A DNA stretch of 64,000 bases from a virus: positions 32,001-96,000 of the IMG/VR virus record IMGVR_UViG_3300044692_000034; one strand, given 5' to 3'. Both the position numbers and the translations under genes were made by a program. A model generated the notes under the pieces. That model did no database searches. It was not told the origin of the DNA and saw nothing but the letters and a program-made list of their open reading frames with translations. Below, piece by piece: positions 21,799 through 48,849 of this stretch (the stretch's first letter is position 1; every line of letters begins with the position of its first letter).

Positions 21799-22136
21799 AA
21801 CGCGTGCGGCTGCACTATGCCACCGTCAGCCCGTTCGTAGGCTCCTGACATGAGCGCGTACTGCATCGGCCGGTCGTGGCAGGGCATGGCCCGCGCAAGC
21901 CTGTGGAAGGCAACGAGCGTGTCGGCCTCCTCGGCGTTCTGTATGAACGGGTTGTCCGGGAACCTGCGCTCGTAGGCTGCCTGCGTCTGCCACGGCTCAC
22001 GCGGCGGCTCCGTGAGCTGCTTGTCCTTGGACCAGTACCGCCGTGGAGAGCTGTCCATAACGTGTAGGGCCATGCCCGCAGCAAACGGCAGACCCCACGG
22101 CTCCCAGCCCCATGCGTTGACTCCGACGGTAGGCAC
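21771..22136 (-). CDS. hypothetical protein
   Basis: ORF in a co-oriented string. Confidence 0.5.
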   Translation of the reverse strand: MPTVGVNAWGWEPWGLPFAAGMALHVMDSSPRRYWSKDKQLTEPPREPWQTQAAYERRFPDNPFIQNAEEADTLVAFHRLARAMPCHDRPMQYALMSGAYERADGGIVQPHALWAMEKGDT

Positions 22137-32284: not shown

Positions 32285-33271
32285 TCAGCCAACACCATAC
32301 GTCATGAAGAAATGGCCGGGATAGTAATCGACGGTGCCGTAATCGATCGGGGGTGAGCCGTGCCCGATCGTCTTGCCACCGCCGACGTATATCTCCACAT
32401 GGCCGCCGTCCGCCGAGAACATTAGATCTCCCGGCTGCGGGTGCGTCGCGAGCGTGCCCTTCGATATCTGATCGAGCGTGTCGGTCCCGGGGTCTGGCGC
32501 GCCCGCCGCAAGGTAGATGGCCCTCGCCCACTGTGAACAATCTGTGCGGTCCGGTGCCGGCGGCATCGGGTTGTCAGTGAGCGCGCCTTCTTCGCTGTAC
32601 CGGTTGTATCCCGTCTTCGTTGAGAGCGTCGCTTCGGCTGCGCTGATGATCTTGGCGCGGACGCCGGCGAGGTCGCCTACGGCTGCGGCTGCGCCACGGT
32701 ACAGCGCAGCTTTCTCTTCGACTTCACTGACGTACCATTCGGCGTTGTTGTACGCAAGGATCGCCCGGTGGTAGTCCTGCGGCGCGCCGTTCGCCACGAG
32801 CATCCTGGCTGTGGCAGGCACCGCGTCTTTCGGATCGTAGACGTCGCCGCCCTGCCCGTACGCGTCCCACGTACTCGGCGGCCCGTTCTTGATGTTGAAC
32901 TGGCCGGGACCGGCGCAGCATCCGTACGCGTTGACGCCCGAGTGCACACCCGGTGCCGTACTCCGCCCATGGTCTGTTTCGATGCTGTAGATGCCGGCGA
33001 TGATCGCCCAGTCGATGTGGTACTCGTCACCTGCCTGCCTGTACAGCGTCAGCATGTCCGGTGGGATGTCAGCTACTGCGACGGTGCTCGGCGCGTACCC
33101 AACCTGACCACCGCCAAGGCCACCGACGAGCATGCCAGCAACGGCCATCAGGAAGACGTAGACCGTGGCGCAGAGCACGAACCCGGCGAGCAGAGCCTTG
33201 CTAACGAGGCTCGTGTCATCCCAGCGTTGCCGTGCCGCCCGAGCAGCGACGGTGACTTCCATGGACGCCAT
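32285..33271 (-). CDS. conjugative cell-wall hydrolase: lytic transglycosylase + NlpC/P60 (CwlT/VirB1-like)
   Basis: N-terminal TM; IDWAIIAGIYSIETDHG, GPGQF, AILAYN; TDCSQW, PQPGDLMF, HVEIYVGGG. Confidence 0.9.
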   Translation of the reverse strand: MASMEVTVAARAARQRWDDTSLVSKALLAGFVLCATVYVFLMAVAGMLVGGLGGGQVGYAPSTVAVADIPPDMLTLYRQAGDEYHIDWAIIAGIYSIETDHGRSTAPGVHSGVNAYGCCAGPGQFNIKNGPPSTWDAYGQGGDVYDPKDAVPATARMLVANGAPQDYHRAILAYNNAEWYVSEVEEKAALYRGAAAAVGDLAGVRAKIISAAEATLSTKTGYNRYSEEGALTDNPMPPAPDRTDCSQWARAIYLAAGAPDPGTDTLDQISKGTLATHPQPGDLMFSADGGHVEIYVGGGKTIGHGSPPIDYGTVDYYPGHFFMTYGVG

Positions 33272-33780
33272 CAGCTAAGCCCCGTGACCATCCAGCGGCC
33301 GTGCTTCTCCAAGGTGAGCTTCACAACGTAGTGGCGGTCGTGAGAGTCGAGTACCCATGCGCTCGTCGCCGCTTCGTTCTGCGTGATGTTCTTCACCTGC
33401 ACGAGCAACACCTTTGCCGTCGTTCTCCCCATGCTCGCGGGGGCTCGCGGCGGGTCAGCGAGCAACTGAGCCTTGAACTCAGGCGCGGCGTCGTTTAGGT
33501 CGCCTGGCGCGTTGCCGTACGAGAACGGCAGGTATTCCTTCAAGAACTGGCGCGTTGTATGGCGCGCTCCGGTGGAGTCCGGGTGCACAGGCAAGCCAGA
33601 CAACGTACCCGGAACCGGTGTCCTGACTGGGTCTGGCGGCTTCTCCGGGGCCGGCGTACGTGTCGGCTTCGGGGGCTGCGTCGGGTGCTGCCCGACAGGG
33701 TTCTGCGCGAGGTACCAAGCGAGCAGAGCAACGGCTACCGAGCAGAGCGCGACAGCCGCCGCTTTAGCTCTCGTCGACAT
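33271..33780 (-). CDS. membrane-anchored conjugation-associated protein
   Basis: Signal/TM, Pro-rich linker and NTF2-like pattern (FLKEYLPFSY...YVVKLTLEKHGRWMVTGL). Confidence 0.65.
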   Translation of the reverse strand: MSTRAKAAAVALCSVAVALLAWYLAQNPVGQHPTQPPKPTRTPAPEKPPDPVRTPVPGTLSGLPVHPDSTGARHTTRQFLKEYLPFSYGNAPGDLNDAAPEFKAQLLADPPRAPASMGRTTAKVLLVQVKNITQNEAATSAWVLDSHDRHYVVKLTLEKHGRWMVTGLS

Positions 33781-35854
33781 TCTCATCCTCTTCGACGTCC
33801 GTGTCGTCGTCTAGGCGGTCGTCTTGCTCCGTGTGCGTGCTCTCGACAAGCACACGCTTCTTTCTCTTGCTGCGACGCAACCTCCCTACTGCCTCGTCGT
33901 GAAGCTCGCGCGGGGTGCGACCCTCCTTCTGCGCGCCGCCCTCTCTCGTGTCGGCAGGTGTCGGGTCGTCTGGTGCCGTCCCGTCCGTAGCGGTAGCGGA
34001 CCCGCCTTGCGGCACACCCCTCTTGTTCGGATCGTGCTCCGTGCCGACGAGAGCCCACGCCACCCGGTGATTGCCCTTCTCGCCGTTCCCGCCCCCGTCG
34101 TTCAGGGCGGCTAGTTCTTCTTCGGTTGCGTACCGGTACTCGCGCTGACCGCGCTTGCCGCCGGCTCGCTTCCCGCGCCGCACACCGCCCGCTGTGTTAC
34201 GCCCCGGCTTGCTTGCGTCGCCCGGCTCCTCCGGCCAGCGCGGATCGGTGGTCCGCGTCGTCGAGCCACTGTCGAGGACGGCGTCGTCGTCCTCTGTGAT
34301 GTCGTCGTTGTTGCGCTTGCCGGCGTTAGGACCAGCGTCTGTCCCGTTGCCGCGCTGCGTACGGGAGCTGCGGAGCATGGACCGCACCGGGCGCATGGCT
34401 GCGTACATACCTGCGGCCGTGATAGCTGCGCTGCCCGTGCCGAGCCCGGCTGAGCGCCCGTGCGCGGCCTTGGCCAGCTCGTTGACGATGAGCTTGCGTT
34501 TGAGGTACACCGTCCAGAAAAACAACGTCTGGATGATGAACGCGACCTCGAAGCCGGCCCACTGTGTGGAGACGAGCAGAGCGGCGCTGACCCCCATGAG
34601 CACCGCTATGACGATCGCGTAAAAGATCTTGATGAATAGTGCGGTGGCGAGCCGCGTCGCCCACCATTTGACGAGGTCGATGCCGCGCGGGAAGATGCCG
34701 GCGACGAGCACTATGGGAGCGAGCCCGAAGAGCGCGAGCGCGACCACCTGCGCGATTATCACGGTCACAGAGAGACGGCCGAACAGGAGCATGAGAGCGA
34801 TCGCTCCCAGCCCAACAAGGAAGACGACCCTGACTCGTGAGAGCGCGCCGCCGGCTTGCTGGATGTCTACGGCTGCGCTGTCGTTCTTGTCGATCTTGCG
34901 TCCACGGAACTGCGCCGCGTACTTCGGGTCGTCTGGGACCTCTCCGCGTCTGAGTGCGTCGTACTCCTCGTCTCGTGCGTCCGTGCCGGGCGCTTGCCTC
35001 AGGAAGAACTTGGCGTAGCCGCCGTACCCGTTTGTGTCCTGCGTCGTGCTGCTGCGGCACACGTCAGCGAACGGGTTGCCTGGCGCCACCGACAGTGGGT
35101 AGCTGTCGTCTTGCGGCGAGGGTAGGTGCGTGTCGACGCAGTGCTCAAGGCCGCCGAACTCCAGGACGACCCACGGCTTGTAGATCATGATGTCGAACAC
35201 GTGGTCCGTGATGGACGTGCTCGGGTCGTCCCCCTTCTTGCCCACCGCACCGAATCCGTTCAGGAAGCTCGTGCTCACACCGTTAGCGAACTTGACCGCA
35301 CCACCGATGATGTATGTGGGGTTTGAGATGATGACGATGCACGCGACAGTGCATGCCAGCGACAGCGCGAACGCTGCGAAGACCTCGCCGGCTCTGCGTT
35401 GCACGAGCGCTCGCCACATGCCCCACACGCCCGCGCAGATGACCGCGAAGTACAGCCACCCTTGTGCGACGACCTGGCCCTCAAACTGTTGGACAGCTGC
35501 GGCGATAGCAGGCAACGCGCCATGCGGCCCCGTGATCAGCTGGAGATTGAACGCCCACGTGAAGACCTCGATGATCAGATTGAGGCCGTTGCAGATGAGG
35601 TCCCAGCCTTGCTGCGCGAACGATTGCCGCAGCTCCGGCACGATGCCGCCCGGGTTCGTGACACCGAAGTCGACGTGGTAGTCGAGGCCGTAGTTGCTGA
35701 GCGGGTACCTTGCCGCGAGCCCTTGCAGCCCTTGCGTCGGCCCGATGTTGACAAACGGGTCGCTGCCGAGGTATTCGGCGAATGCGCTCGCCGGCCCGAG
35801 TAGGTAGATCCCGAGCAGCCACGCTGCGACCTTGCCGGCTCTGCGTTTGATCAC
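33764..35854 (-). CDS. VirB6-like polytopic conjugation membrane protein (ConG/TcpH/Orf15-like)
   Basis: About 8 TM segments, YKPWVVLEFG motif, long hydrophilic C-tail; GTGA overlap with the VirB4 stop. Confidence 0.8.
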   Translation of the reverse strand: MIKRRAGKVAAWLLGIYLLGPASAFAEYLGSDPFVNIGPTQGLQGLAARYPLSNYGLDYHVDFGVTNPGGIVPELRQSFAQQGWDLICNGLNLIIEVFTWAFNLQLITGPHGALPAIAAAVQQFEGQVVAQGWLYFAVICAGVWGMWRALVQRRAGEVFAAFALSLACTVACIVIISNPTYIIGGAVKFANGVSTSFLNGFGAVGKKGDDPSTSITDHVFDIMIYKPWVVLEFGGLEHCVDTHLPSPQDDSYPLSVAPGNPFADVCRSSTTQDTNGYGGYAKFFLRQAPGTDARDEEYDALRRGEVPDDPKYAAQFRGRKIDKNDSAAVDIQQAGGALSRVRVVFLVGLGAIALMLLFGRLSVTVIIAQVVALALFGLAPIVLVAGIFPRGIDLVKWWATRLATALFIKIFYAIVIAVLMGVSAALLVSTQWAGFEVAFIIQTLFFWTVYLKRKLIVNELAKAAHGRSAGLGTGSAAITAAGMYAAMRPVRSMLRSSRTQRGNGTDAGPNAGKRNNDDITEDDDAVLDSGSTTRTTDPRWPEEPGDASKPGRNTAGGVRRGKRAGGKRGQREYRYATEEELAALNDGGGNGEKGNHRVAWALVGTEHDPNKRGVPQGGSATATDGTAPDDPTPADTREGGAQKEGRTPRELHDEAVGRLRRSKRKKRVLVESTHTEQDDRLDDDTDVEEDENVDES

Positions 35855-38298
35855 GTCGCCATCTGCCTTGCGCGTTCGGCGGGGTTGGTGTTGAGCTGCC
35901 GCAGGAGGCGCGGGCTGGAGACGTCGATCTGAGCGCGAACCACGTGCCCCCAGATGTCCTTCACGAAGCACTTGCCTTCTCGTGCTTCGACGATCATTTG
36001 CGCCAGCTCGTCGTTGTCGGGGTCGAGGTTGAGTAGCGCGAGCGCGTCGCGTGCCTCCTCCAGCGTCTCCATCCCGAAGATGTAGAACGTGCCGATGAGT
36101 TTGACGATCTCACCCGGGTCGGCGATGTGCTGCGACGCGATGAGAGACGTAGCGAACTTCGCGCGGCCTTGCCTGACAATGTCCCAGATGAGCCGGCGGC
36201 CACTCGGCGTGGCAAGCAGGAAGTGAGCCTCGTCGAGCAGCAGCGTCTTGTGGATCGTGCGGTCATTGTTGATGAGCCGCATGGCGAAGTATGCGATGAG
36301 CCTGAGGGTCGCAACGCTCAGCCGTTCGATCTCGTCGTAGTCGGCGCGACTGACCATGCTGTCCGGGAGCACGAGCGCGCTCGGCCGGATCACCGTGACC
36401 TGCGCACGGTCAATGAACTGGCGTTCGCCGTTGGAGAACGCGAGCCGGGCGAGCCCTGCCGCTGCGCGTGTGCCGAGCGCATCGCCGGCGGCGTTGGCGT
36501 CCTCTCCTGCCGACGTCCTCATGAGCAGGTCGATAACGGCTTGCGCACATGGCTTCTCCATCTCGGCGACGACCTGCGCTGCCTTACGCACCTGCGTACC
36601 CCACGTCGACGGCACGTTCGTCGGTAGCAGCTCCATGAAATACGAATAGGCGCCGTCAACGACCTGCGACCTCGGCAGGACCAGAAATGGATCGAGGAGC
36701 CCAGCGTACATCACCGGGTCGTCCAGATCTACGACTTCCACACGGCCCTTGAGTTCGTCAACCTCCTCCAAGTGGTGGTCGGGCTTCGGGTCGACGTCAA
36801 CGATCTGGCCGCCGGAGAGCGCGTCCCCCACCGCCATCAGCTCCGCCGCCGTGGTCTTACCAGACCCCTGCGTACCGGCGAGCAAGTACGCGCTCGCGCG
36901 GTTCTCCTCGGGGGCGCGGCGCAGGTCGTTGAACAGTGGCCGCTCGTGCCCGTGTTTCGGGCTACGTCGGTCGACGTACCCGATGTACGTGCCGCTCCGC
37001 GAGCCGAGATCGTGCGTGGCAATAGGCATGAGCGTCGCGAATTGCAGCGGCGTGAGCCAATCGCGGTAGTGCGTGACTCGGCCGCCGTCGACGCGTGGCA
37101 GGTGGTCGTAGAACGCCCGCTTTTGCGTCCCGACGGGCAGCCACAACTTCACGGTGCCGAACAAAGCCCGCAGCTCCGAGATCTTCGCTTTGACCTCGTT
37201 TGTGGTCTTGCACCCGCCGATAGCGAACGACACGCTCGTGCGGAGCAGCGGCGGTTGGTCACTGCGCCGGAGCCGCATGTCAAGCCGGCGAGCCTGCCGC
37301 GCGTCGTCCTCGGACGCCCATGACTTCGCGCCGGCTGCGCTCTCGTCCTCATCGCTGAGAACGTTGTCGGCATCGCGGACCTTGCGCTGCACCCTCGAGA
37401 TGGCCTGAGAGTTCGCCTCCCACTCCACATGCATGACCATGTCAACCGGGAAGCTCGCACGCTCCAACGGCGTGAACAAGAACTCCGACTCGCCGGGGAA
37501 GATCGTCTCGTCGGGGAGCGCACCGAGGTACAGGATCGCTTGCCACAGGACGCCCTCTTCGGTGCGTGCCTGGAGGAACCCCTCGGCGTTGCGGATCGGC
37601 TCGTTCCCGAGCGAGAGCATGTCCGTCCCGAGCGGCACGTAGGCGTCATGCCCGTCGTCGGTTTCGACGACCAGGGCGTTCGGCTCCCAGTAATCGTCGA
37701 GTGGTGGCTCGCCGTGCCCGCGATACGCGGCCCGCCGGAAAAGCCATTGCAGCTCTCGGGTGGTGGCACGCCGCGCCGGCAGCCGGTCCGTCACCGTGGC
37801 GTGCATTTCTTCTTCGGCCTCGATAAGACCGTTGATCTCGGCCTTGCTGATCGGGCGGAGCTTGCCGACACCAAGCGCGTCCTCGGCCGTCGCCCGGACG
37901 CGTTCCATGTCGCGGCCGAGCGCCACACCGAACCCGTCGGTTGCTTCGGTCACGATCCTCGGGATGAGGTAGAACTCAGGGAAGTACGCCTTGCGGCCGT
38001 TGATCTTGTCCTTGTGCTGCTCGACGAACTGGCGGAGCAGCTTCTCAGTCTTGTACCGGTTGTCGAGGTTCCGTAGTGCCTGCTGGACGTACGCCTCGAC
38101 CTCGTACTCGCGGTTGACGCGGTACAAGGAGTAGTCGGCCTTGACGTCGTGCGTGAACAACTGGAGCCGCGACGCCCACGAACCCTTGTCGCGAAGGTAC
38201 GGGTAGCTGATCGGGTTGACGCGGTAGATAGCGCCGCGCTCAGCGCCGCGACCGACAAGGATGTTGCCGTGCGCGTATCGCAACGGGAACTTGTTCAC
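35851..38298 (-). CDS. VirB4-like conjugation ATPase (ConE/TcpF/Orf16-like)
   Basis: 815 aa; Walker A AGTQGSGKT, VDVDPK, LLDPF, Walker B LLLDEAHFL, RQGRAKF...ASQ, GKCFVKDIWGHV. Confidence 0.92.
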   Translation of the reverse strand: MNKFPLRYAHGNILVGRGAERGAIYRVNPISYPYLRDKGSWASRLQLFTHDVKADYSLYRVNREYEVEAYVQQALRNLDNRYKTEKLLRQFVEQHKDKINGRKAYFPEFYLIPRIVTEATDGFGVALGRDMERVRATAEDALGVGKLRPISKAEINGLIEAEEEMHATVTDRLPARRATTRELQWLFRRAAYRGHGEPPLDDYWEPNALVVETDDGHDAYVPLGTDMLSLGNEPIRNAEGFLQARTEEGVLWQAILYLGALPDETIFPGESEFLFTPLERASFPVDMVMHVEWEANSQAISRVQRKVRDADNVLSDEDESAAGAKSWASEDDARQARRLDMRLRRSDQPPLLRTSVSFAIGGCKTTNEVKAKISELRALFGTVKLWLPVGTQKRAFYDHLPRVDGGRVTHYRDWLTPLQFATLMPIATHDLGSRSGTYIGYVDRRSPKHGHERPLFNDLRRAPEENRASAYLLAGTQGSGKTTAAELMAVGDALSGGQIVDVDPKPDHHLEEVDELKGRVEVVDLDDPVMYAGLLDPFLVLPRSQVVDGAYSYFMELLPTNVPSTWGTQVRKAAQVVAEMEKPCAQAVIDLLMRTSAGEDANAAGDALGTRAAAGLARLAFSNGERQFIDRAQVTVIRPSALVLPDSMVSRADYDEIERLSVATLRLIAYFAMRLINNDRTIHKTLLLDEAHFLLATPSGRRLIWDIVRQGRAKFATSLIASQHIADPGEIVKLIGTFYIFGMETLEEARDALALLNLDPDNDELAQMIVEAREGKCFVKDIWGHVVRAQIDVSSPRLLRQLNTNPAERARQMAT

Positions 38299-38855
38299 GC
38301 ATACACCTCCAGCCGCTCACCGTCTTTGACGTCAACTTCTTGTAGCTCGCCGGCTGCGTCTGCTCGCAGCGTCACACGAGTGTTCTTCATTGCGACCCTG
38401 ACGGGGGCGTTGGTCCTGACCTTGGCGGGGCCGTGTACTCGGCCACGGCGCAGCTCAGCACCCGAGATGTCCCACCGCACCGGCAAATCCTCCTGCCACT
38501 CCTCCCACGTCTCTTCCTCCTCGGGATTGTCGCGTAGGGCCTGGACGGTGCGCGCCCAGAGGTAGATGTGGATGGACCGGCCGTCGGGCGCTTCCTGGCG
38601 TGCCGCAAACGCCACGATGACAGCCAACGACCCGTATCTGAACCACCCGGGCATGAGCCCCATGACGAGCCCCGTACCCGGCGTGTGCGACAGCAGGTAC
38701 ACCACGAGAACCGTTCCGAACACCCAGGCTGCGGTCTGCGCCGGGATGCCGCCGGGGACCATCTTTGTGAGGTCGAAGTCCCATACGCGCCGGATGCGCC
38801 AATCGGTCCTGAAGACGCGTCTGTACGAGACGACGCGTATGCGCCGTTGCTTCAC
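38295..38855 (-). CDS. TcpE/ConD-like (VirB3-like) conjugal transfer membrane protein
   Basis: VSYRRVFRTDWRIRRV, two TMs, PDGRS motif; directly upstream of VirB4. Confidence 0.78.
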   Translation of the reverse strand: MKQRRIRVVSYRRVFRTDWRIRRVWDFDLTKMVPGGIPAQTAAWVFGTVLVVYLLSHTPGTGLVMGLMPGWFRYGSLAVIVAFAARQEAPDGRSIHIYLWARTVQALRDNPEEEETWEEWQEDLPVRWDISGAELRRGRVHGPAKVRTNAPVRVAMKNTRVTLRADAAGELQEVDVKDGERLEVYA

Positions 38856-39193
38856 GAGGTGCCGGCGATCTTGTGCCCGATCGCGGTGACCATGTTGACG
38901 ATGCTGCCGCCGTCGAACACGAACATGCCCGTGATGATCACGGCCGCGATGTAGCTGATGATGATCCCGAGCTTGCGTGCGCCGGGAAACAGGAACGCGA
39001 GTGCACCTGCGGCGACTGCCGCCTTCCACGGGGTCTTGACGTTGTCGAGGACCCAGTTGCCGGCGTTCTCACCGTAGTTCGCGTTGTCGGTTGGGTCGGC
39101 GAGCACGATGGCGGGACCGAGCGCTGCGACCATTGCCATCGCCATGAGCAGCAAGAACACGCGCCGCCCCATACGAGTCACTTGCTGCATCAC
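38852..39193 (-). CDS. small pilin/VirB2-like (TcpD/ConC-like) membrane protein
   Basis: Signal-like segment plus two TMs, 113 aa, canonical operon position. Confidence 0.65.
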   Translation of the reverse strand: MMQQVTRMGRRVFLLLMAMAMVAALGPAIVLADPTDNANYGENAGNWVLDNVKTPWKAAVAAGALAFLFPGARKLGIIISYIAAVIITGMFVFDGGSIVNMVTAIGHKIAGTS

Positions 39194-40050
39194 TTATCTC
39201 CTTCGTTCACTTTGGCTACGTACCAGCGGTCGCCCTTGACCAGCACGAGCCGATACCCGAGCGAGTACGACGCATCGTCCTCTTTTGCTGTCACCGTCGC
39301 GTACACCTGCCGCTCTCGTCCCTTCGCCGGCGCGAGCAGCCCGACACTGTTCACCTGGACGAGCTTCATCACGACAGGGCTCGCGCCGAGCTGCGCACCC
39401 GGGAGCGCCGGGCCGGCAGAGACGGCGTCTGCGTCGCCGGCAAGGTACGCCGTGAAGAACCTGTTGACGACGTCGAGTATGTCGCTCGACTCGTCGGGGC
39501 TGAGCTGGTCGAGGTCGTCGTTGTTGGGGGTGGCAACGAGCGGCGCGCTTGTCAGGCTCGGCAGCGCGTACACGACCAGCCCGTGGTTCTTGTCCGTCTC
39601 TACGGGCACGCCGAGGTATCTCGTCACAGCACGCCCGTTAGCCTGCATGGTCACAGCGACTGTGATGAGTGCGCGCTGCGACCCGGTCGTCGTCTCGTCA
39701 GACACGGCCGTGGCTTGCACGACCTGCGCCGGGGCCTTCTCGCCCCAGGTGGGGACCACGCGAGCACCAAGATTCGTCGAGACGAACGACTCAAGGTCCT
39801 GCTCGTAGAACCCGGGGTGCTTCGGATTGTACGAGAAGTACGTTCGCGCGAAGTCCATGGCGTACGCGCGAGCTGCATCGTCAGGCCACTGCGAACGCTG
39901 TTCTACGACCTTCGTTGGTCCTGCCGGCTTCGTCGGCGTTGTCGCAATAGCCGTGAGCCCCCGGAGCGCGATGATCACCAGGACGAAAGCGACCAGTCCT
40001 CGGCCTGCCTTCTTGGCGTACCCCTTGAGCTTCGTGCGCGTTGCCGCCAT
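39190..40050 (-). CDS. TcpC/ConB-like (VirB8-like) conjugal transfer protein
   Basis: N-terminal TM; AMDFARTYFSYN, RYLGVPV, VNRFFTAY, YRLVLVKGDRWYVAKV (two NTF2-like repeats). Confidence 0.85.
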   Translation of the reverse strand: MAATRTKLKGYAKKAGRGLVAFVLVIIALRGLTAIATTPTKPAGPTKVVEQRSQWPDDAARAYAMDFARTYFSYNPKHPGFYEQDLESFVSTNLGARVVPTWGEKAPAQVVQATAVSDETTTGSQRALITVAVTMQANGRAVTRYLGVPVETDKNHGLVVYALPSLTSAPLVATPNNDDLDQLSPDESSDILDVVNRFFTAYLAGDADAVSAGPALPGAQLGASPVVMKLVQVNSVGLLAPAKGRERQVYATVTAKEDDASYSLGYRLVLVKGDRWYVAKVNEGDK

Positions 40051-40156
40051 CCAATCCTCTCCGTGTTGGTGGCCGCTACATGATGCGGCGTTCGTTCGGT
40101 GAGGTGATGGTAGCCGGTCTGTCTAAGCCGCGACCATCATGAAACGGTGCGCATGC

Positions 40157-40420
40157 TTACATCGGCGGGATGGGTGGGCTGCTAGGCGGCCCAAGCGACT
40201 GTGACGCTTGCCACTGCCGCGCACGTTCCTCTGAGACGACACCGTGCCCCTTGCAGAAGTGACACATGATCGTATAGCGGCGGCCGGTGCCCGGCTCCTC
40301 CCTGCGCTCCACACCACCCTCACAGCATGGGCGCGGGCACTTGACGGACCCGCTCCCCAGCAATGCCGCCAAGTACCCGCCGGGCACGATACCGACGTTC
40401 TCGCTCATGCCCATCGCCAT
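40157..40420 (-). CDS. small DnaJ-type zinc-finger protein
   Basis: CPRPCCEGG...CHFCKGHG. Confidence 0.55.
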   Translation of the reverse strand: MAMGMSENVGIVPGGYLAALLGSGSVKCPRPCCEGGVERREEPGTGRRYTIMCHFCKGHGVVSEERARQWQASQSLGPPSSPPIPPM

Positions 40421-40439
40421 GCTGTGACCTACCTCTCGG

Positions 40440-41036
40440 CTAGCAGCCGACCCAGGCGCCGGCCCCTTGTTCCTTGTAGATGCGTGCCGCGCACGCGTCC
40501 TGGTCTCCTGGCACGTTCACGTCCAAGCCTTGGCAGACGCCGCCGGGCGAGTAGTGCGACCTGAGCGTCTGCCACCGGCCCGTTGCCCCCGACGAAGGAT
40601 TGGTGTTCGCCGGCCCCGTCGAGTAGTTGCCGTGAGACTCGTCCGCGCACGCCGGCAAGTTGGCGGCCACCCCGGACGAGACAACGCCGCTCGGTGCCTG
40701 CGGCGCGCCCATGGTGCGTGTGAGCAGCGGCGGCCCCGGCCACGGCACGCGCGCGCGCAACGCGCGGAGCTGCCGCAACGACTGCGCGATCTCGCCGCAG
40801 TGCGATGGCCTGATCTTGTGCGCACCGCTGTGGTAGCGATACCTGACCCCGAGGCGCCGGATGTTCCTGCCCGGTGCCCTGCGCCCGAACTTGTGACGTA
40901 CGGCGTAGTACTGCGCCGAGTAGTCCACGAGGAGTTTCCTCTCTCCGCAGACGGTGTGGCTCTGTTGCGTCGCCGCTTGCGCTGACCCTGTATGGAGCGC
41001 AGCGGTCGCAACGAGGACCGCTGTTAGCAGCCTCAT
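40440..41036 (-). CDS. secreted Rpf/SceD-like transglycosylase
   Basis: Signal peptide; CADESHGNY, GATGRWQ, DQDACAARIY..QGAGAW..C. Confidence 0.8.
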   Translation of the reverse strand: MRLLTAVLVATAALHTGSAQAATQQSHTVCGERKLLVDYSAQYYAVRHKFGRRAPGRNIRRLGVRYRYHSGAHKIRPSHCGEIAQSLRQLRALRARVPWPGPPLLTRTMGAPQAPSGVVSSGVAANLPACADESHGNYSTGPANTNPSSGATGRWQTLRSHYSPGGVCQGLDVNVPGDQDACAARIYKEQGAGAWVGC

Positions 41037-41110
41037 TCACCGACCTCCTTCGTTGGAAGCGGCGGACGCTAGCAGCCCTTATCTGTGCATGTCCATCAGC
41101 CATATGGCCA

Positions 41111-42127
41111 CTAGAAGAGCTGGTCCACAGAGGGGTACACGGTCAGCGGGGTTTGAGGCCAGCCGCGCATTGCTGTCGGTTGCTCCCTGACTTGTAGCCG
41201 CTCAGGGAAGTCGGGCAGCATGTCGGCCTTGCCAGGAAGGCCGTGCGCTCGCGCCCACCGCGTCCCCATCTGCTTCACGTGGACGGCGGTCGGCTTCTGT
41301 TCTTCGATGTCGAAGATGGGTTGGATCGGGTTGTGGGCTCGCCACACGAGGTCCCACATCCAATTTTCGTCGACGGGGCGTGCTTTTGGGCCGCTCTCTC
41401 CACCGATGATGATCTCGTCGATGTCGCGCAACGACAAGCCGCCATCGGTCTCGTCATGACCATCGTGCCAGTAGTGCCGCTCGCGCATGTCACCGGGGTC
41501 GCCGGTCTGCATGTCGCGCGGGTACGGATCATAGCTCGTGGTGTACATGGGGAGTAGCGGCCCGAGCAGCGGCTCAGCGCTGATAAACCGCACTGCCGTG
41601 TTCGTGTCGCGAAGCAGGTCGGCGCGCGACACGAACGCACGGTTCTCGATCGTAACGCCATGCCAGATGTGCGCTGGTGTCGGAAGGCCACCGCCGGAGA
41701 TGCTGTCGGCTGCTGCGTGGTGTCCTTGCGACGTGAGCAGAATGCGCAGGTTGGCCCAGAACGCCGTGTTGTTGAGCAGATTCCTCATTCGCTCAGGGCG
41801 TTTGGTCAGGACGCGGTAGATGTGCTGTGGTGCGGCCATCATCGTCGCGTACACCTGCAAGATGAACCCGACCTGGATGTCGTCGTGGAACAGGTCGCTG
41901 AGCGAATTGACGAAGATCATGCGCGGCGACGTCCATCGGATGGGGACTTCAAGTCTGTTCGGATGAAGCGTGATCGGTATCTCGCCGCGCTCGAACCGCA
42001 TGCCGCGCTCACGGAACGGCATCGTGTCGGCGATGTAGCAGTGAGCGCATCCGGGGCTGATCTTCCGACAGCCCCACGTCGGGTTCCAAGTGTCTGTCGC
42101 CCATGAAATAGCCGTGCGACCAGGCAC
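41111..42127 (-). CDS. phage Gp37/Gp68 family (DUF5131) protein
   Basis: ISWATDTWNPTWGCRKISPGCAHCY, FVNSLSDLFH, LTKRPER, FISAEPLLG, IGGESG, VKQMG. Confidence 0.92.
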   Translation of the reverse strand: MPGRTAISWATDTWNPTWGCRKISPGCAHCYIADTMPFRERGMRFERGEIPITLHPNRLEVPIRWTSPRMIFVNSLSDLFHDDIQVGFILQVYATMMAAPQHIYRVLTKRPERMRNLLNNTAFWANLRILLTSQGHHAAADSISGGGLPTPAHIWHGVTIENRAFVSRADLLRDTNTAVRFISAEPLLGPLLPMYTTSYDPYPRDMQTGDPGDMRERHYWHDGHDETDGGLSLRDIDEIIIGGESGPKARPVDENWMWDLVWRAHNPIQPIFDIEEQKPTAVHVKQMGTRWARAHGLPGKADMLPDFPERLQVREQPTAMRGWPQTPLTVYPSVDQLF

Positions 42128-42332
42128 TACTTCACCATCTCCCTCATCGTTCTGACGTACACCTCGGCGTGCCCGAGCATGTCATCAAACGATGCGACGA
42201 GCCGGGCGCGTATCGCCGCGAGCATCCGCGCCCCGTGACATGCGCTGACCATGCCAGCGCAATCCTCCCCTGCACGCGCGTTGCAGTCAGGGCAAGAGAC
42301 TTCGGCGATCGCCTCGTACACGGTTGGTGCTT

Positions 42333-42833
42333 TCATTCTGGCCACCCCAGGTAGTTCGGGCACTTGTCAGGCCCGTGCTCTGAGAGTTTGCCACCGTGAC
42401 CGCATCGCAGGCACGTGCGCACCACATGCCCTTCGTAAACGGCGTTGCCTTCGACCCACTCTACGTCCCACCACAGCGGTGTGTCAGCCGTGAGCCCGAT
42501 CTTCAGGAGCCTGCGCGCCTCAACCCGGCCTGCTTCCTTCAAGCGGTACTGAGCCCTGCCCCTGTGCCCGTACGTAGACCACGCGTAGCCGCGCCGCACG
42601 AGTGCCGTACACGCGCCCCCGAGCACAAACCCCGGCTGCTGCCACCCCGAGTACGAGTGCCCTCCCTTCGCGCCGCTGCCGTTCCTGCGTACCCCGTGCC
42701 CGAGCTTCGCGCGGTACGCGAGGTCGCTCGCGAGAGCGGGGCCGTGCCCTGACACCATTTCAAGGTCGTACAGCGCGAGTAGCAGGCGCTGCCCCGTCGG
42801 TGTTAGTGGCGTATCCCGACCCGTGCCCGCCAT
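42333..42833 (-). CDS. winged-helix-like protein with zinc ribbon
   Basis: LTPTGQRLLLAL...ASDLA...YRLKEAGR; CLRC. Confidence 0.5.
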   Translation of the reverse strand: MAGTGRDTPLTPTGQRLLLALYDLEMVSGHGPALASDLAYRAKLGHGVRRNGSGAKGGHSYSGWQQPGFVLGGACTALVRRGYAWSTYGHRGRAQYRLKEAGRVEARRLLKIGLTADTPLWWDVEWVEGNAVYEGHVVRTCLRCGHGGKLSEHGPDKCPNYLGWPE

Positions 42834-43017
42834 GACGTGTCGTCAGCTCCTTGGTCGATGTCGTCGTAGCGGATCGCTGCGAGCCCGTTCCTGAGGCCGG
42901 CCGCGACACCTTGAGCCGGCCGCCCGGCATCGAGGTCACGTAGCGCCAGCTCCAGCAACAACCTCAGCGATGCCTGCTGCTCACTGTCTGCCATGCCCTG
43001 CTCCTCTCCAGAGACAG

Positions 43018-43045
43018 CAGAGCCCCGGCGGCGGCCGGGGCTCTG
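43018..43045 (-). terminator. intrinsic terminator-like hairpin
   Basis: CAGAGCCCCGG/CCGGGGCTCTG 11-bp stem after the 43071-43685 gene. Confidence 0.6.
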
Positions 43046-43070
43046 TCAGCGTGCGTGTCCTGGCGTACGG

Positions 43071-43685
43071 CTAGGCGGCCTGCGCCGGCTCGGACTCGGG
43101 GGTGTCGGCGCCACCCTGGCCGTCGCCCGCGTCCTCCTTCTTCGCGGGCGCGGCGGCGGCGAGCCGATCCTCGGCCGTCCCGTCGAGCTGCCAGCCGTAC
43201 GCGATCAGCGCGGCGGCCACGTGACGCGGCCGGATCGCGGCGGCCTCGTCGACCTGGCCGACGAGCGCCTTGAGGGGCTTCGTCGAGCCGCCCTCGGACC
43301 GGGCGAACGCGGCGAGGCGCTCGCTCGCGGACTCGAACGTCGGCGCGCTCTCGCCCTCGGGCACCTCGACGCCGTCGCCGTACAGGCCGGCGATGACGAG
43401 CAGGTTCTCCGTGGTCTCCCCGCCGGCCTTCTTGAGCGCCTTCGTGAACGCCCTGTCCATGAAGTCCTGCTGCTTCGGCGACGCCGGATTCTTGTAGCCC
43501 GGGACGAGCCGGACGAGCTTCGAACGCTGGACGACGTGGTCCTTGTACTTCGCGCGGCCAGTGCCGGCCTTCTTCGCGGCGGTCTTCTTCGCGACGGGCT
43601 TGGCCGCCGGAGTACCCGACGCCTTCTGCGCCCGCGCGGCGGCCTTCTCGGCTGCGCTGATCGTGGGGGTCTTTTCGTTGGCCAC
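43071..43685 (-). CDS. histone H1-like Lys/Ala-rich protein
   Basis: AAKPVAKKTAAKKA N-terminus; GGAGG SD; own promoter and terminator. Confidence 0.7.
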   Translation of the reverse strand: MANEKTPTISAAEKAAARAQKASGTPAAKPVAKKTAAKKAGTGRAKYKDHVVQRSKLVRLVPGYKNPASPKQQDFMDRAFTKALKKAGGETTENLLVIAGLYGDGVEVPEGESAPTFESASERLAAFARSEGGSTKPLKALVGQVDEAAAIRPRHVAAALIAYGWQLDGTAEDRLAAAAPAKKEDAGDGQGGADTPESEPAQAA

Positions 43686-43740
43686 TTCGGGGGTCCTCCT
43701 CTGGGGTCTTGCACGCCTTGCGGTCGTTGTCTAGAACTCG

Positions 43741-43768
43741 ACTATACAGACGGCTGACCGGTTTACAA
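43741..43768 (-). promoter_or_regulatory. promoter TTGTAA-N16-TATAGT with upstream AT tract
   Basis: Read directly; AAATTTTT UP-like tract at 43781-43788. Confidence 0.7.
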
Positions 43769-43804
43769 GGGGTTGCGGCGAAAAATTTCTGCGCCGCAGC
43801 TCGG

Positions 43805-44029
43805 CTAGTCAGCGTCGTCGAAGTACTCGTACCCGACCCTGACGATCTTCTCACCGGTGTCGGCGCGGCACGCGACGATCTCGTTCCCGCCGTGATGCAG
43901 GCACATCTGCCATGCCGCATCCCTCGCGGCGGCGGCGTCGACCATCCCGTTCTCGTCGACATTGACATTGGCCGTATACCCGAGCGGGCTCTCTTCGTTG
44001 TCGCGGTAGAAGTTGATGCGTGCGATCAT
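43805..44029 (-). CDS. hypothetical protein
   Basis: GGAG SD, 74 aa. Confidence 0.6.
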   Translation of the reverse strand: MIARINFYRDNEESPLGYTANVNVDENGMVDAAAARDAAWQMCLHHGGNEIVACRADTGEKIVRVGYEYFDDAD

Positions 44030-44050
44030 CGTGGTCTCCGTTTAGACACG

Positions 44051-44079
44051 AAAGGGCGGCGTGCCGAAGCGACGCCGCC
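44051..44079 (-). terminator. intrinsic terminator
   Basis: GGCGGCGT-cGC-TTCG-GC-ACGCCGCC followed by CTTTCGTGT. Confidence 0.65.
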
Positions 44080-44094
44080 GAGTGTACGTGGTTG

Positions 44095-45171
44095 CTACGC
44101 CACCGCGACTTCGTGGATCAGCGCGCGCAGCTCTCGCTTCTCCCGCGAGTTCCGCAGCATGGAATCGGTGAAGCGCGTCTCGCGACTGCGGTTGCCCTTC
44201 AGGTGGTCGAGGAACTCCGTGCCGGCGAGATGCAGCCCGTAGCCTGTACCACGGTGCGCGTCCGGGATCGTCGGGGAGTTCTCCAGCAGGTTGCGAACGG
44301 CCGCGCGAGCCGTCTCGATGTTCTGCACCTTGGTGTCGCTGACGACGCTCGTGATCGCCTCGGGCGGCATCGGGATGAAGCGCTTCACGAACTCCTCGCG
44401 GCGCATCTTGTTGATCTTCAGCTTGGCCAGTTCGTTGGCCATCGTGACGTACACCGGCGTCTGCGTGCGCAGGCCCTTCAGCGCGTCGCGGGCCTCCTCG
44501 ATGCGCTCGGCGTAGTTCGCCGTGTGCCGGAACGTGAAGTTCGTGCCGAGGCGGTTGGCCTCGGCCTCGCTCGCGGCCTCGGTGTTGGCGCAGACGACGC
44601 GGACGGTGGTGGAGCGTGCCTTGAGGCTCGCTGTCCCGTCATGCGCCCACGTGACACAGATGAACGGAAGGATGGGGGAGTCGTCGCCCTTGATCTGGAT
44701 GGGCTCGTCGAGCCACGCGAGGACCCAGCAGAGCGCGCCCATCTTGAGGACGCCGGCGGACTCGTACTTGGCGTTGCCGGACGTGTCCGCGCCGAGGATC
44801 ATGTCCATGACGTCCCAGCCGACCGAGTTCTGGATCAGGGTGTACGACTCCTTGCCCTGGAACATGATCTGGTCGTGCGTCGGGTCGCCGGGCATGTCCT
44901 TGACCATCGTCTTCCAGCCGGGCGTCTCGCCCTTGCAGTAGAAGATGTCGCCGTCAGGCATGACGATGTACGGCTTGTCGAACCCGGGCCTGGCGAAGTC
45001 GTCGAGGTCGACGGGGTCGCCAATGCGAGCGGAGCGCTCCTCGACGATCGTGAAGTCATGGCCCGCCAACTTGATCGCTTCCTCTCGGCCGGGGAAGTCT
45101 TCCAGGACCGTTCCGAGTCCGTGCCACGCGGGCTCGTTCACAAAAAAACCGTCTTCGAAGTAGGCGGGCAT
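44095..45171 (-). CDS. DUF932/DUF945 phage/plasmid-related protein
   Basis: EPAWHGLG, YTLIQN, YESAGVL, AHDGTAS, TVRVVCANT, FRHT. Confidence 0.88.
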   Translation of the reverse strand: MPAYFEDGFFVNEPAWHGLGTVLEDFPGREEAIKLAGHDFTIVEERSARIGDPVDLDDFARPGFDKPYIVMPDGDIFYCKGETPGWKTMVKDMPGDPTHDQIMFQGKESYTLIQNSVGWDVMDMILGADTSGNAKYESAGVLKMGALCWVLAWLDEPIQIKGDDSPILPFICVTWAHDGTASLKARSTTVRVVCANTEAASEAEANRLGTNFTFRHTANYAERIEEARDALKGLRTQTPVYVTMANELAKLKINKMRREEFVKRFIPMPPEAITSVVSDTKVQNIETARAAVRNLLENSPTIPDAHRGTGYGLHLAGTEFLDHLKGNRSRETRFTDSMLRNSREKRELRALIHEVAVA

Positions 45172-45267
45172 GCTAGGCGCTCCTCGGGGTGTTGGCGGTG
45201 GGCTGCATTGAGGAGCAAAGCTACAGGTACGCACTGTTCCTCTCAACAGTTGCCGTCAACTTTGCAT

Positions 45268-45681
45268 CTACACCGCCAGTCCAAACTGCACATGTCCGCC
45301 GCGTAGCTTCTTTTCGGTATGCGGATACTCGAACTCGAACGTAAGCTGGTCGCCGTAGTCGACGTAGATCGGCTCACGCACGCGAGGCGTCACGGGGCTG
45401 CCGTCAAGCGGCTCATTGAAATGCGGACGGCGTACGCTCGCGACGCGTACCAACGGGACATGCACATCCCCGGAACCGTCCCACAACTTCGCGAACGCGC
45501 TCGACGCCGCCACGTGCTCGACATAGCCGCGCACACGCGCCCGGTCTGCCGGCGCATCCCGCACATCCACCGTGCCGGCGTGCGCGCCCTGCATGAGCAC
45601 AACGACCTCACGCTGAGACGCCCACGCGCCGCGCAGCTCCCACGCGATTACATCGGGTTGCCGTTCAGGGTGCAGACTCAC
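45268..45681 (-). CDS. hypothetical protein
   Basis: ORF track; QLTFEF motif. Confidence 0.5.
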   Translation of the reverse strand: MSLHPERQPDVIAWELRGAWASQREVVVLMQGAHAGTVDVRDAPADRARVRGYVEHVAASSAFAKLWDGSGDVHVPLVRVASVRRPHFNEPLDGSPVTPRVREPIYVDYGDQLTFEFEYPHTEKKLRGGHVQFGLAV

Positions 45682-45860
45682 TCGGCGTCTCCTGATGAGC
45701 CACGCCGAGGTAGAAGCCGCTCGTGCTCAGCTCGCCCAGCAAATCGCCGGCGGCGTGAGAGTCAGAGCGTAGGCCGTTGACGCGTCGCATCGCAGCCATG
45801 AGAGCCGACACCGCATCGAGAGCGTTGACGCGGTGCAGAGTGTTCGGCGGGCGGTCCACG

Positions 45861-46409
45861 TCACCCATCGTAAACCACCGGCACAACCGCCTTCGGTATG
45901 TACAGCGGGTGCTCAGGCTCGCCGCCCTTGCACAGCCTGAGCGCGTACAGCTCGCTACGCGCCGCGTCCCGTAGCAGGCGCGTTACGTGCTGAGCCCTGC
46001 CGTCGACAGGGCCTTTGTTGGCGCCCCACGCGCACACGATGCGGCCGGCGCGCGCAGCCTCTTGCGTGAGGTAGTTGTCGTTGAGTGGCCCTACCGGGTC
46101 CTCGGCCGCCGCCATGTCACGCGGCTTCGTCGCTCGGTACGCGTACAGGTTGCAGACGACCAAGCCGCCATACCCCCAGCGCTGCGCGTACCCGACGCAC
46201 TTACGCACCGTCGGGTCGAGCTTGTGTTCCGTCGCTGTGCTCGGGTTGAGCATGACGAACAAACAGATCTGGACGGTGTGGTCCCACACGCGCCAGAGCC
46301 GGTATCTGTGAACCGGCTCGGCAGTCCCGTTCTTGTGGTACGTGGCTCCCTCTCGACCAAGGATGTCGCCCCACGCTTCGATGACGGGAGACTCAGTTGC
46401 CTCGTTCAC
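45861..46409 (-). CDS. DUF1643 domain protein
   Basis: RYRLWRVWD, FVMLNPSTA, DPTVRKC, NLYAYRATKP, VCAWG, PEHPLY. Confidence 0.92.
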   Translation of the reverse strand: MNEATESPVIEAWGDILGREGATYHKNGTAEPVHRYRLWRVWDHTVQICLFVMLNPSTATEHKLDPTVRKCVGYAQRWGYGGLVVCNLYAYRATKPRDMAAAEDPVGPLNDNYLTQEAARAGRIVCAWGANKGPVDGRAQHVTRLLRDAARSELYALRLCKGGEPEHPLYIPKAVVPVVYDG

Positions 46410-46597
46410 CTTGCGACTCCTTTATGACGTCGTCGATGGCCTTGTCGACGGTGCGCCGCATCAGCTCCTTCATCTGTGGATCGTCCATGTACAGCCACGG
46501 GCTCAGGTCGTAGATGCTGCATCCCAGGGCCTCGGCGACCTCGCCGAGGTTCTTGCCCTCGGTGCTGTACATGTGCCGAGCACGCGCCATAGCTTCT

Positions 46598-47605
46598 TCA
46601 GAGAGCCGAAACGGGCGAGCCATCGCCGTATACCTCCGCCGCTCGCAGATGCTCTTCGACTTGCGCGATGTACCGCTGGACGTCAGCGGCCGGACCCCGC
46701 TCGGCCGGTGCGGTCGGCAGCGACCACACTTCCCACCAGTACATGTCGATTCCCTCGAACCATGCTTGCGCGACACCGACTCTGGCTTCGCTGCCCTTGC
46801 GCCAGCGGTACAGCGCCCTCTCTGAGAGCCCCAGCCGCTTGGCCAAGCTCTCTTCGCTGAGCACCGTCACGTGCGTGCCGTCTTCAGCGATGTCGACGTA
46901 AGCCGCGAGGTACGCCTCAATGGCAGCAAGCAACGCCCGTGAGTCGATTGTCTTGTAGTTGCGCTGTGTGCGCACCTGCGTCGACTTCGGAACTACCTGG
47001 TCGGGGTGGACCCCCTCGCGCTTCTCCTTCCGGAGTCGGTAGCCGATACGACCGACCTCCAGAGCTTGAGCGTGTCGGACGGGGTCCTGCTTACGGCGCT
47101 CGCGGTACGCCTTCTGCGACGCCCTGACCTTCTCTCTGTTCCGCGCGCGCCACCGCCTTGACGCGGCCGTGTCAAGCTCGCGCTTGCGTTGCCGTGCCTC
47201 CTCGGTCATGACACCTTTCCGGTACGTGACCCAGTTCTTGTCGCACGTCTTGCAGTAGTACCGCTCTTCGCCGTAGAACCCTTCGGCGAGAGGCTTGACG
47301 TCCTTGCAGCGTGCGCAGCGCCGCACAACGACGCCGTCTTCCTCCCAGGTGGCGCGGCGAGCTTGCGCCCGCTCCTCCCGCTCAGCTTCTTCTTTGTCGT
47401 GGCACGCCTGGCAGACAGCCGACCGCCGCCGCGACACACCACGGCCCTTCTTCCCGTCCCCCCACGGGAACGCGCGGCCCGGCTTCTTCTCAAGGCAGTG
47501 GAAGCAATGCCGCCACGTACACAGCGGCCCATCGAGCTTGCACTCCTCGCACTTCTGCTGCCGGCCGACGAGAGTGCCCCTACCGCACGGGCACGGCTTC
47601 ACCAC
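46598..47605 (-). CDS. multi-zinc-finger protein with C-terminal HTH (start uncertain)
   Basis: Several CxxC pairs; SEESLAKRLGLSERALYRW. Confidence 0.55.
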   Translation of the reverse strand: MVKPCPCGRGTLVGRQQKCEECKLDGPLCTWRHCFHCLEKKPGRAFPWGDGKKGRGVSRRRSAVCQACHDKEEAEREERAQARRATWEEDGVVVRRCARCKDVKPLAEGFYGEERYYCKTCDKNWVTYRKGVMTEEARQRKRELDTAASRRWRARNREKVRASQKAYRERRKQDPVRHAQALEVGRIGYRLRKEKREGVHPDQVVPKSTQVRTQRNYKTIDSRALLAAIEAYLAAYVDIAEDGTHVTVLSEESLAKRLGLSERALYRWRKGSEARVGVAQAWFEGIDMYWWEVWSLPTAPAERGPAADVQRYIAQVEEHLRAAEVYGDGSPVSAL

Positions 47606-47889
47606 CGTCTGCTTGCCCGTCCGGGTCTGTCCCGCAGAGCGGGCAAGCTCCGACGAAGGCACCGTCTGGTTCGACCCAGGATCCGCAGCCGGTGCAACGG
47701 CGAGCGCCGTGACCGACGAACCGCCAGCGTTCGTCGTCTCCGCGTCCGACTCGTCGGTAGAGATACCGCCCACGAGCAGCTTCAGCGTGGCACCACCCTC
47801 GCGAGTCGATCCACCTGAACGTCTCCGACCGCGCGGTCGCGGTTGAGCCGTCGAAAGGTCCTCCTTCGACGGCTCTGCGGGCCATGCGC

Positions 47890-48819: not shown

Positions 48820-48849
48820 GTTTGTCCTAGCCCCCTGCGTGGACGCGGC

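Follow-up and report, generated by a model that had tools for sequence, protein, structure and literature searches.

The subject of this analysis is a mating-channel operon that is carried by a virus. It lies within a 64,000-nucleotide stretch of DNA, hereafter the window, which represents bases 32001-96000 of the 141,737-bp virus record IMGVR_UViG_3300044692_000034, and it occupies positions 32285-40050 of the window on the minus strand (positions are those of the window unless marked as genome positions). The operon consists of seven intact genes whose stops and starts overlap or abut one another, and its description in an initial annotation, made from the DNA letters alone, as a mating-channel module is upheld here by profile matches and by conserved motifs.

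The first gene (39190-40050) encodes a TcpC-like (VirB8-like) protein of 286 amino acids with one N-terminal transmembrane (TM) segment, which matches PF12642 (E value 5.5e-19, 69 bits versus a cut-off of 27) and also the hidden Markov model (HMM) of a cluster of cellular proteins, c2 (4e-60). The start of the next gene (38852-39193) overlaps the TcpC stop by 4 nt; its product is a two-TM membrane protein of 113 amino acids, hydrophobic at residues ~8-34 and ~73-102, that is recognized by the HMM of cellular cluster c3 (8e-9). The third gene (38295-38855), whose start we re-set to a GTG overlapping the stop of the gene upstream, specifies a TcpE-like (VirB3-like) membrane protein of ~186 amino acids, with a match to the HMM of cellular cluster c10 (7e-25) and one to PF12648 (5e-6, 27.3 bits) that stays under the cut-off of 29.9. 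It is followed by the channel ATPase of the VirB4/TcpF family (815 amino acids, 35851-38298; AAA_10 1.7e-46, NCBIfam TcpF 9e-50), in which Walker A (GTQGSGKT) and Walker B (LLLDEA) are intact, and by a polytopic VirB6/ConG/TcpH-like protein of up to 735 amino acids (33764-35971) with at least three long hydrophobic stretches, which is matched by the HMM of cellular cluster c1 (9.5e-135) and by NF046089, the CD3337/EF1877 mobilome membrane protein model (7e-29, 101 bits, below the cut-off of 120). A single-TM protein of 171 amino acids comes next (33271-33786; cellular cluster c14 HMM, 6.8e-21), and the operon closes with a membrane-anchored NlpC/P60 cell-wall hydrolase of 328 amino acids (32285-33271; PF00877 25.8 bits, above the gathering cut-off of 23; cellular cluster c11 HMM, 1.6e-40) that keeps the Cys (DCSQW) and His (GHVEIY) motifs and sits in a CwlT/TcpG-like position. 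When tested for membership in the MPF_FATA or Tcp/Con channel class, the operon proved to contain VirB4, TcpC and the peptidoglycan hydrolase alike, and judged by its sequence it is a complete channel operon of a type IV secretion system (T4SS) of the Gram-positive (Tcp/Con/Tn916-like) type.

The carrier of this operon is a genuine tailed phage from soil, on which the portal, protease, capsid, large terminase (TerL), RecT/PD-(D/E)XK and CheckV evidence is concordant. The record is classed as linear, with a CheckV completeness estimate of 96%; its GC content is ~65% (65.0% for the whole phage) and almost every gene lies on the minus strand. The head genes for the portal, the prohead protease and an HK97-type capsid are found at genome 128-133 kb and TerL, identified by profile matches, at 11000-12652 (minus strand), and the phage further encodes RecT, a PD-(D/E)XK nuclease, ribonucleotide reductase, Ro60, SNF2, Ku and DNA methylases. 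The phage probably infects a member of the Solirubrobacterales. Searches of the whole record at E≤0.1 detected neither tyrosine nor serine recombinases (Phage_integrase, Resolvase), and thus there is no sign of integration. The nature of the carrier, which the initial annotation had left unstated, changes the question that is asked about the channel.

A self-transmissible conjugative system is one in which VirB4, a type IV coupling protein (T4CP) and a relaxase are co-localised (PMC3158045). That neither a VirD4/TcpA/FtsK ATPase nor a MOB relaxase could be recognized in the 64 kb had been noted before, and this is confirmed: Pfam scans of 39 open reading frames (ORFs) of the window returned no T4CP and no relaxase. 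Six-frame searches of the whole 141.7-kb record at E≤1 likewise gave no match to Rep_trans, Relaxase (MOBP), MobA_MobL, TrwC, Mob_Pre or RepSA, nor to T4SS-DNA_transf or TraG-D_C, which represent the VirD4/TraG/TrwB type, and HMMs of the T4CP-like and Replic_Relax clusters of related cellular loci (see below) were without a hit in the phage at E≤10. The lack of a relaxase is one at the level of sequence profiles, MOBH, MOBC and fold-level HUH having not been searched and ~100 hypothetical proteins not folded. The sole FtsK_SpoIIIE match of the record lies outside the window, at genome 140224-141642. The full-genome check that had been proposed for T4CP/FtsK and relaxase profiles thus yields one FtsK-like gene and no standard relaxase or VirD4-type T4CP, so that the suggestion that the DNA-processing genes reside elsewhere on the genome holds for an ATPase of the FtsK/TraB/TcpA superfamily located 70 kb off and fails for a relaxase or rolling-circle initiator, neither of which was found in the record. 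Non-adjacency in itself is not unusual, t4cp genes being often far from virB4 (PMC12102498). Since a VirB4 cluster without a relaxase match is what the published definition demands (PMC3158045), the T4SS of the phage is relaxase-less (MOBless), with a coupling ATPase that is split from the locus.

This distal ATPase (472 amino acids, minus strand, PF01580 ~38 bits versus a cut-off of 24) has its gene 95 bp short of the contig end, at a distance of 70 kb from VirB4. It is membrane-anchored by an N-terminal hydrophobic/TM region, and its Walker A (GEPGSGKS), Walker B, RGR and QKP motifs are intact. There are two known T4CP families, the VirD4 type and the FtsK type represented by TcpA (PMC12102498); comparison of the FtsK-like family with VirD4-type proteins by hhalign revealed no relation, and its matches among PDB sequences are FtsK and TcpA, the coupling protein of pCW3. 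Its best NCBIfam match is plasmid TraB, and it is 34-38% identical (E values down to 1e-41) to FtsK/SpoIIIE proteins of small Streptomyces plasmids, among them a 772-amino-acid protein of pSVH1 which is presumably the TraB transfer protein known from that plasmid (PMC4447253), whereas it is only 24-31% identical to the "FtsK-like DNA translocases" of Mycobacterium and Streptomyces phages. An IMG/VR scan with it retrieved no relatives. The alignment pairs phage residues 157-455 of 472 with residues 375-668 of 772 in the pSVH1 protein, and as the phage protein ends ~17 residues later, it has no counterpart of the ~100 C-terminal residues of the latter. Recognition of clt resides in the C terminus of TraB (PMC4447253); clt-like repeats, looked for around the FtsK-like gene and at the ORF-poor contig start, were not convincingly present.

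Relatives of the channel operon are scarce in the virus collections searched. A megablast search of INPHARED with the phage gave no DNA match, a tblastn search of the same collection matched VirB4 in only three Firmicutes records (24-26% identity), and scans of IMG/VR, whether with VirB4 itself or with an alignment of it, yielded no relative. A protein search returned 18 VirB4 relatives in a comparable length range, one of which, on a short contig from a run assembly (Logan), is 79% identical, and an alignment-based scan returned 160 loci from Solirubrobacterales genomes and soil metagenomes with VirB4 proteins 35-47% identical to that of the phage. In a VirB4 tree the phage protein groups with its 79% identical sister on a long branch that is basal and lies outside every cellular clade, a placement that carries the usual long-branch caveats.

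These comparisons bear on whether the operon might be a functionless passenger or a chimera of assembly. That a single long phage contig carries it, and that no INPHARED or IMG/VR relative has it, would be in keeping with such an accident. Against this, the seven ORFs are intact with abutting or overlapping ends, the motifs of the motor and the hydrolase are preserved, and a second sample holds the 79% identical VirB4. The GC content of the operon (64.8%) and of the FtsK-like gene (65.3%) agrees with that of the phage (65.0%) and differs from the one seen in cellular homologues (median 72.7%; 72.6% in their FtsK-like genes), the operon is on the same strand as the phage genes that surround it on both sides, and no att-like or flanking repeats were seen around it in the phage. 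The phage-like GC content, the lack of flanking repeats and the long basal VirB4 branch argue against recent capture, chimeric assembly and decay alike, such that we consider a passenger or chimera highly improbable; by these compositional and phylogenetic signs, the operon is a long-standing resident of the phage.

Clustering of ORFs in the cellular loci reveals a conserved order of TcpC, two-TM protein, TcpE, VirB4, polytopic protein, a protein resembling the 171-amino-acid one in some, and hydrolase, downstream of which come a C5 methylase, an 880-amino-acid protein with Walker A and B motifs and two TM segments, and Replic_Relax (PF13814). The phage genes with counterparts in the 160 loci are the channel genes only, besides stray weak matches of a methylase and of a tail-region protein. 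Where the flanks are complete (66 loci), a T4CP-like ATPase occurs within 10 kb in 59/66 and Replic_Relax in 38/66; other clades have a canonical VirD4-type protein adjoining TcpC (L139) or a HerA/FtsK-like ATPase (L095). The T4CP-like label refers above all to cluster c4 (L016:16289-18931 and 77 other loci), whose members are 860-1280 amino acids long, carry two TM segments and Walker A and B motifs and are encoded directly upstream of Replic_Relax. The 880-amino-acid protein of this cluster has no Pfam match, a profile run against PDB sequences produced nothing, and hhalign against VirD4-type proteins gave a weak Walker-B match alone. Its AlphaFold model is poor (predicted local distance difference test, pLDDT, 55.6), and Foldseek places it in the VirB4/HerA/TrwB/Cagbeta ATPase superfamily; going by this model, it is probably a divergent coupling protein, for which reason we label it T4CP-like and not T4CP. 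One of the metagenome contigs (L099:1791-14444) shows the operon as a perfect-looking inverted duplication, mirrored from TcpC to the polytopic gene, which is probably a hairpin artefact of assembly.

The abundance of such operons with a T4CP-like ATPase and Replic_Relax 5-9 kb downstream in the presumed host order (in the 59/66 and 38/66 loci just mentioned), together with the occurrence of VirB4 of this family in 17/151 sampled genomes, raises the question of whether the phage gives the hardware only, a resident element of the host supplying relaxase and origin of transfer (oriT) in trans, or the phage channel mobilising such elements. No oriT-like or att-like sequence was recognized; moreover, as the phage VirB4 is just 35-47% identical to the cellular ones, cross-compatibility is doubtful, and we see only a slim chance that the channel serves in this way.

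A different link emerges from L009, L010 and L012 (VirB4 44-46% identical), the nearest loci to the operon of the phage, which are among the seven that are devoid of any T4CP within 10 kb. G001, G002 and G003, the bearers of the closest VirB4 copies, all encode full-length homologues of the FtsK-like protein (40-45% identity, 1e-85 to 1e-93), and in the two genomes with contiguity sufficient for a check of linkage these lie on the same contig and strand as VirB4 and downstream of it, at a distance of 12.6 kb in G001 (Solirubrobacter deserti) and of 16 kb in G002, a metagenome-assembled genome. In both cases direct repeats enclose VirB4 and the FtsK-like gene together. The S. deserti element measures 21.8 kb (L009 and L175; C62 91011-112804) and is bounded by exact 46-bp repeats at 91011 and 112759, the second of which overlaps tRNA-Thr and adjoins a tyrosine integrase; the other measures 25.3 kb (L012, L176 and L178; C21 1578271-1603531) and has exact 48-bp repeats at 1578271 and 1603484, the second overlapping tRNA-Asp. 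No members of the T4CP-like or Replic_Relax clusters reside inside either element, and besides VirB4 the FtsK-like protein is the sole sizeable Walker-A protein within both, which makes it, on sequence grounds, the only candidate coupling motor of the two elements. In the S. deserti element, RepSA (1e-143), an excisionase-like HTH_17 gene and the integrase come after the FtsK-like gene. The pairing of FtsK-like and RepSA genes recalls conQ-nicK of ICEBs1.

A survey of actinobacteria from 2012 reported no elements of the type of AICEs (integrative and conjugative elements of actinomycetes) outside the Actinomycetales, a Bifidobacterium case excepted (PMC3429521). The elements described here constitute a family outside that order which joins a T4SS operon and an FtsK-like Tra protein to a backbone of the pSAM2 type (integrase, excisionase-like gene, RepSA), the backbone being noted for the tRNA-Thr element, and because one element resides in a cultured strain, S. 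deserti, the family is open to experiment.

The co-occurrence analysis among relatives that had been proposed earlier was carried out on cellular genomes. This FtsK type is present in 3/151 sampled Solirubrobacterales genomes, and it occurs in three of the four genomes of the closest clade versus none of the 16 other VirB4-bearing genomes of the 151 sampled (Fisher p ~0.0035, calculated by hand); against a background of 2/150, p = 6.6e-5. In the two genomes that permit a check, the homologue of the phage ATPase shares an att-bounded element with the operon, and such comparisons connect the ATPase family with the nearest cellular relatives of the phage operon. The best-supported reading of these homologies is that channel and pump would both come from one Solirubrobacterales family of integrative elements, whose Rep, Xis and Int genes are not in the phage. 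We consider the chances evenly balanced that the phage keeps the channel together with the likely pump of this element family, in the form of a set that has no recognizable relaxase, rolling-circle initiator, integrase or VirD4-type T4CP.

Several observations weigh against joining the two parts in this manner. The p-values overstate independence, as the four genomes are related and not phylogenetically independent. No FtsK-like relative at ~79% identity to match the sister VirB4 was found, and the gap between pump and channel in the phage amounts to 70 kb, or ~64 kb if the genome is circular. FtsK/TraB-like genes are present in many actinophages that have no channel operon, for example in those of Mycobacterium and Streptomyces, and a relative of the head module (G156) displays an FtsK-like profile match of 2e-43 and no AAA_10. 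Finally, VirB4 is missing from some Solirubrobacterales genomes or loci that have the same FtsK type (G021, G078 and the second copies of G001 and G002).

The same facts, that FtsK-like genes are common in phages without VirB4 and that the pump lies 70 kb away, can be turned into a reading in which the FtsK-like gene is unrelated and the channel works without a coupling protein in a non-DNA role, be it the export of protein into neighbouring cells (proteins or RNPs had been named as possible cargo in the initial annotation), remodelling of the envelope or release, or the exclusion of competing elements. Precedents for it exist: VirB4 clusters without a relaxase have been classed as putative protein-exporting T4SS (PMC3158045), systems free of a T4CP are known in Ptl and the Brucella VirB (cited in PMC12102498), and the relaxase-less MPF_FATA-like systems of Patescibacteria are thought to be co-opted (PMC12102498). 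The additional secreted Rpf-like hydrolase encoded directly upstream of the operon (see below) is also consistent with a function at the envelope. However, the FtsK-like protein is much nearer to its element-borne homologues (40-45% identity, 1e-85 to 1e-93) than to the translocases of phages (24-31%), and no candidate secreted effector was identified. We therefore regard the non-DNA role as possible, if on the unlikely side.

Should the phage indeed keep channel and pump as parts of one set, we infer that the two cooperate and what they carry along the following lines. Two hydrolases would open the wall, VirB4 would assemble and energise a channel made of the TcpC, TcpE and VirB6-like proteins, and a hexamer of the FtsK-like protein would dock as the substrate motor. 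Cargo would then move without the single-strand transfer that a relaxase primes, and would most plausibly be unprocessed double-stranded DNA or protein. In its boldest form this amounts to a second route that is independent of the particle, in which the T4SS and the FtsK/TraB-like pump pass unprocessed double-stranded DNA, of the phage or other, from the infected cell to a neighbour without any relaxase. We find this form doubtful; if true, it would mean that a virus uses a hybrid of two actinobacterial conjugation mechanisms.

A relaxase might also be substituted by a non-canonical phage enzyme, and the initial annotation had named for this part the Tyr/TOPRIM protein encoded at 22136-23227 (minus strand, 363 amino acids; phrog_6247 "DNA topoisomerase", 1e-98). 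Enzymes of the Topo VI-A/Spo11 fold form covalent 5'-phosphotyrosyl links with DNA, and the annotation's guess as to the fold was right: the AlphaFold model (pLDDT 83.8) has Topo VI subunit A (9o0g/1d3y, probability 1.0) as its top Foldseek match, MksG nuclease also being found, and the active-site residues (invariant Tyr42/43, Glu139/143 and a DxD motif) are likewise confirmed. The role of a relaxase is another matter, since the family comprises at least 8000 homologues at ~50% identity, many of them on phage-sized contigs, and has a PHROG of its own, as against 18 VirB4 relatives in the same database; no homologue was found by tblastn in the 160 cellular loci, and the gene stands 9 kb from the operon amid replication and repair genes. 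With a distribution in which nothing links it to the operon, the protein was rejected as a relaxase, and we consider it very unlikely that such an enzyme serves in this capacity. As an observation in its own right, this Topo VI-A/Spo11-like family is very large, well conserved, present in phages and devoid of a Pfam model.

Upstream of the operon, a small Zn-finger gene and an Rpf-like gene had been noted, and both are found to be there. The former (40157-40420, minus strand) encodes an 87-amino-acid zinc-ribbon-like protein, so called from the CxxC...CxxC motif read in its translation, with no Pfam, PHROG or NCBIfam match. The latter encodes a secreted Rpf-like (transglycosylase-like) protein of 198 amino acids with a signal peptide (40440-41036, minus strand), which matches PF06737 over residues 139-198 (5e-4, 21 bits, below the gathering cut-off of 27); its coding frame, marked by a GC content of 0.85 at third codon positions (GC3), is 40440-41036 and not 40429-41103. 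A run of genes of a kind often seen on mobile elements lies just upstream of the operon (41111-49614, minus strand) and includes DUF5131 (41111-42127), DUF932 (44095-45246), DUF1643 (45861-46409) and the genes of a Ku-like and a VWA protein (47890-48819 and 48850-49614, respectively).

As to the architecture of the phage genome at large, a distance of ~87 kb separates TerL (11000-12652) from the genes of portal, protease and capsid (genome 131121-132854), unlike in the head-module relative L179, where the terminase is directly upstream of the portal. L179 and a further relative, L180, are too distant from the phage to inform on conservation of operon or pump in its lineage. G156, mentioned above, is IMGVR_UViG_3300028831_000243, a 43.8-kb phage record without VirB4 whose portal is 48% identical to that of this phage and whose FtsK/TraB-like protein lies in an open frame of 814 amino acids (L181, G156 C1 38803-39834). 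The first 2700 bases of the record (L003:1-2700) contain no convincing ORF and are dense in GC-rich hairpins and short repeats; this ORF-poor start and the contig end near the FtsK-like gene may be the physical ends of the genome.

As a rule, DNA is considered to travel either by conjugation channel or by tailed virion. Here, a phage that apparently does not integrate has a full channel and a probable motor in its genome, without the genes for DNA processing and maintenance of the element family in question. If the parts do cooperate, then either DNA is transferred through a VirB4 channel independently of a relaxase, in which case the T4SS paradigm and that of TraB would become one, or T4SS channels serve phages for some purpose other than DNA transfer.

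With respect to known systems, part list and gene order of the phage operon match those of Tcp (pCW3), Con (ICEBs1) and Tn916 orf13-16 (MPF_FATA/FA), modules which also use a coupling protein of the FtsK family (TcpA/ConQ type). Those elements have coupling protein and relaxase in the same locus, whereas the ATPase of the phage is 70 kb off and the carrier is a tailed phage. The closest cellular homologues are the Solirubrobacterales elements (VirB4 45-46% and FtsK-like ATPase 40-45% identical to those of the phage), in which channel and pump are spaced by 12-16 kb as opposed to 70 kb; unlike the phage, they possess att sites and cargo, and the tRNA-Thr one adds RepSA, an excisionase-like gene and a tyrosine integrase. 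The likeness of the pump extends to TraB/TraSA of Streptomyces plasmids and AICEs (pSVH1, pSAM2), with which the phage protein shares a membrane anchor and a motor domain that is 34-38% identical. TraB alone moves unprocessed double-stranded DNA, with no relaxase (PMC4447253, PMC3429521), and such systems need no VirB4 channel. Of the features of the AICE/TraB type, the phage has the Tra protein with an FtsK/SpoIIIE domain; the C-terminal clt region is missing, there is no match to RepSA or an integrase (RepAM and Prim-Pol were not searched), and no Rep or spd was found.

In combining VirB4 and channel genes with no relaxase, the phage system resembles the MOBless T4SS (Guglielmini et al. 2011, PMC3158045) and the MPF_FATA-like systems of Patescibacteria (PMC12102498), which may or may not include a T4CP and are regarded as co-opted to other ends (PMC3158045, PMC12102498); those are chromosomal in cells, whereas the phage system resides in a virus genome. 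Finally, phage and conjugation genes are also physically linked in the tandems of a phage and an integrative and conjugative element (ICE) (PMC13651849). Those tandems consist of complete elements side by side, each with its own integrase and with the full ICE transfer machinery (PMC13651849), whereas the phage described here, in which no flanking repeats, integrase or relaxase were found, harbours a bare channel operon set amid phage genes.

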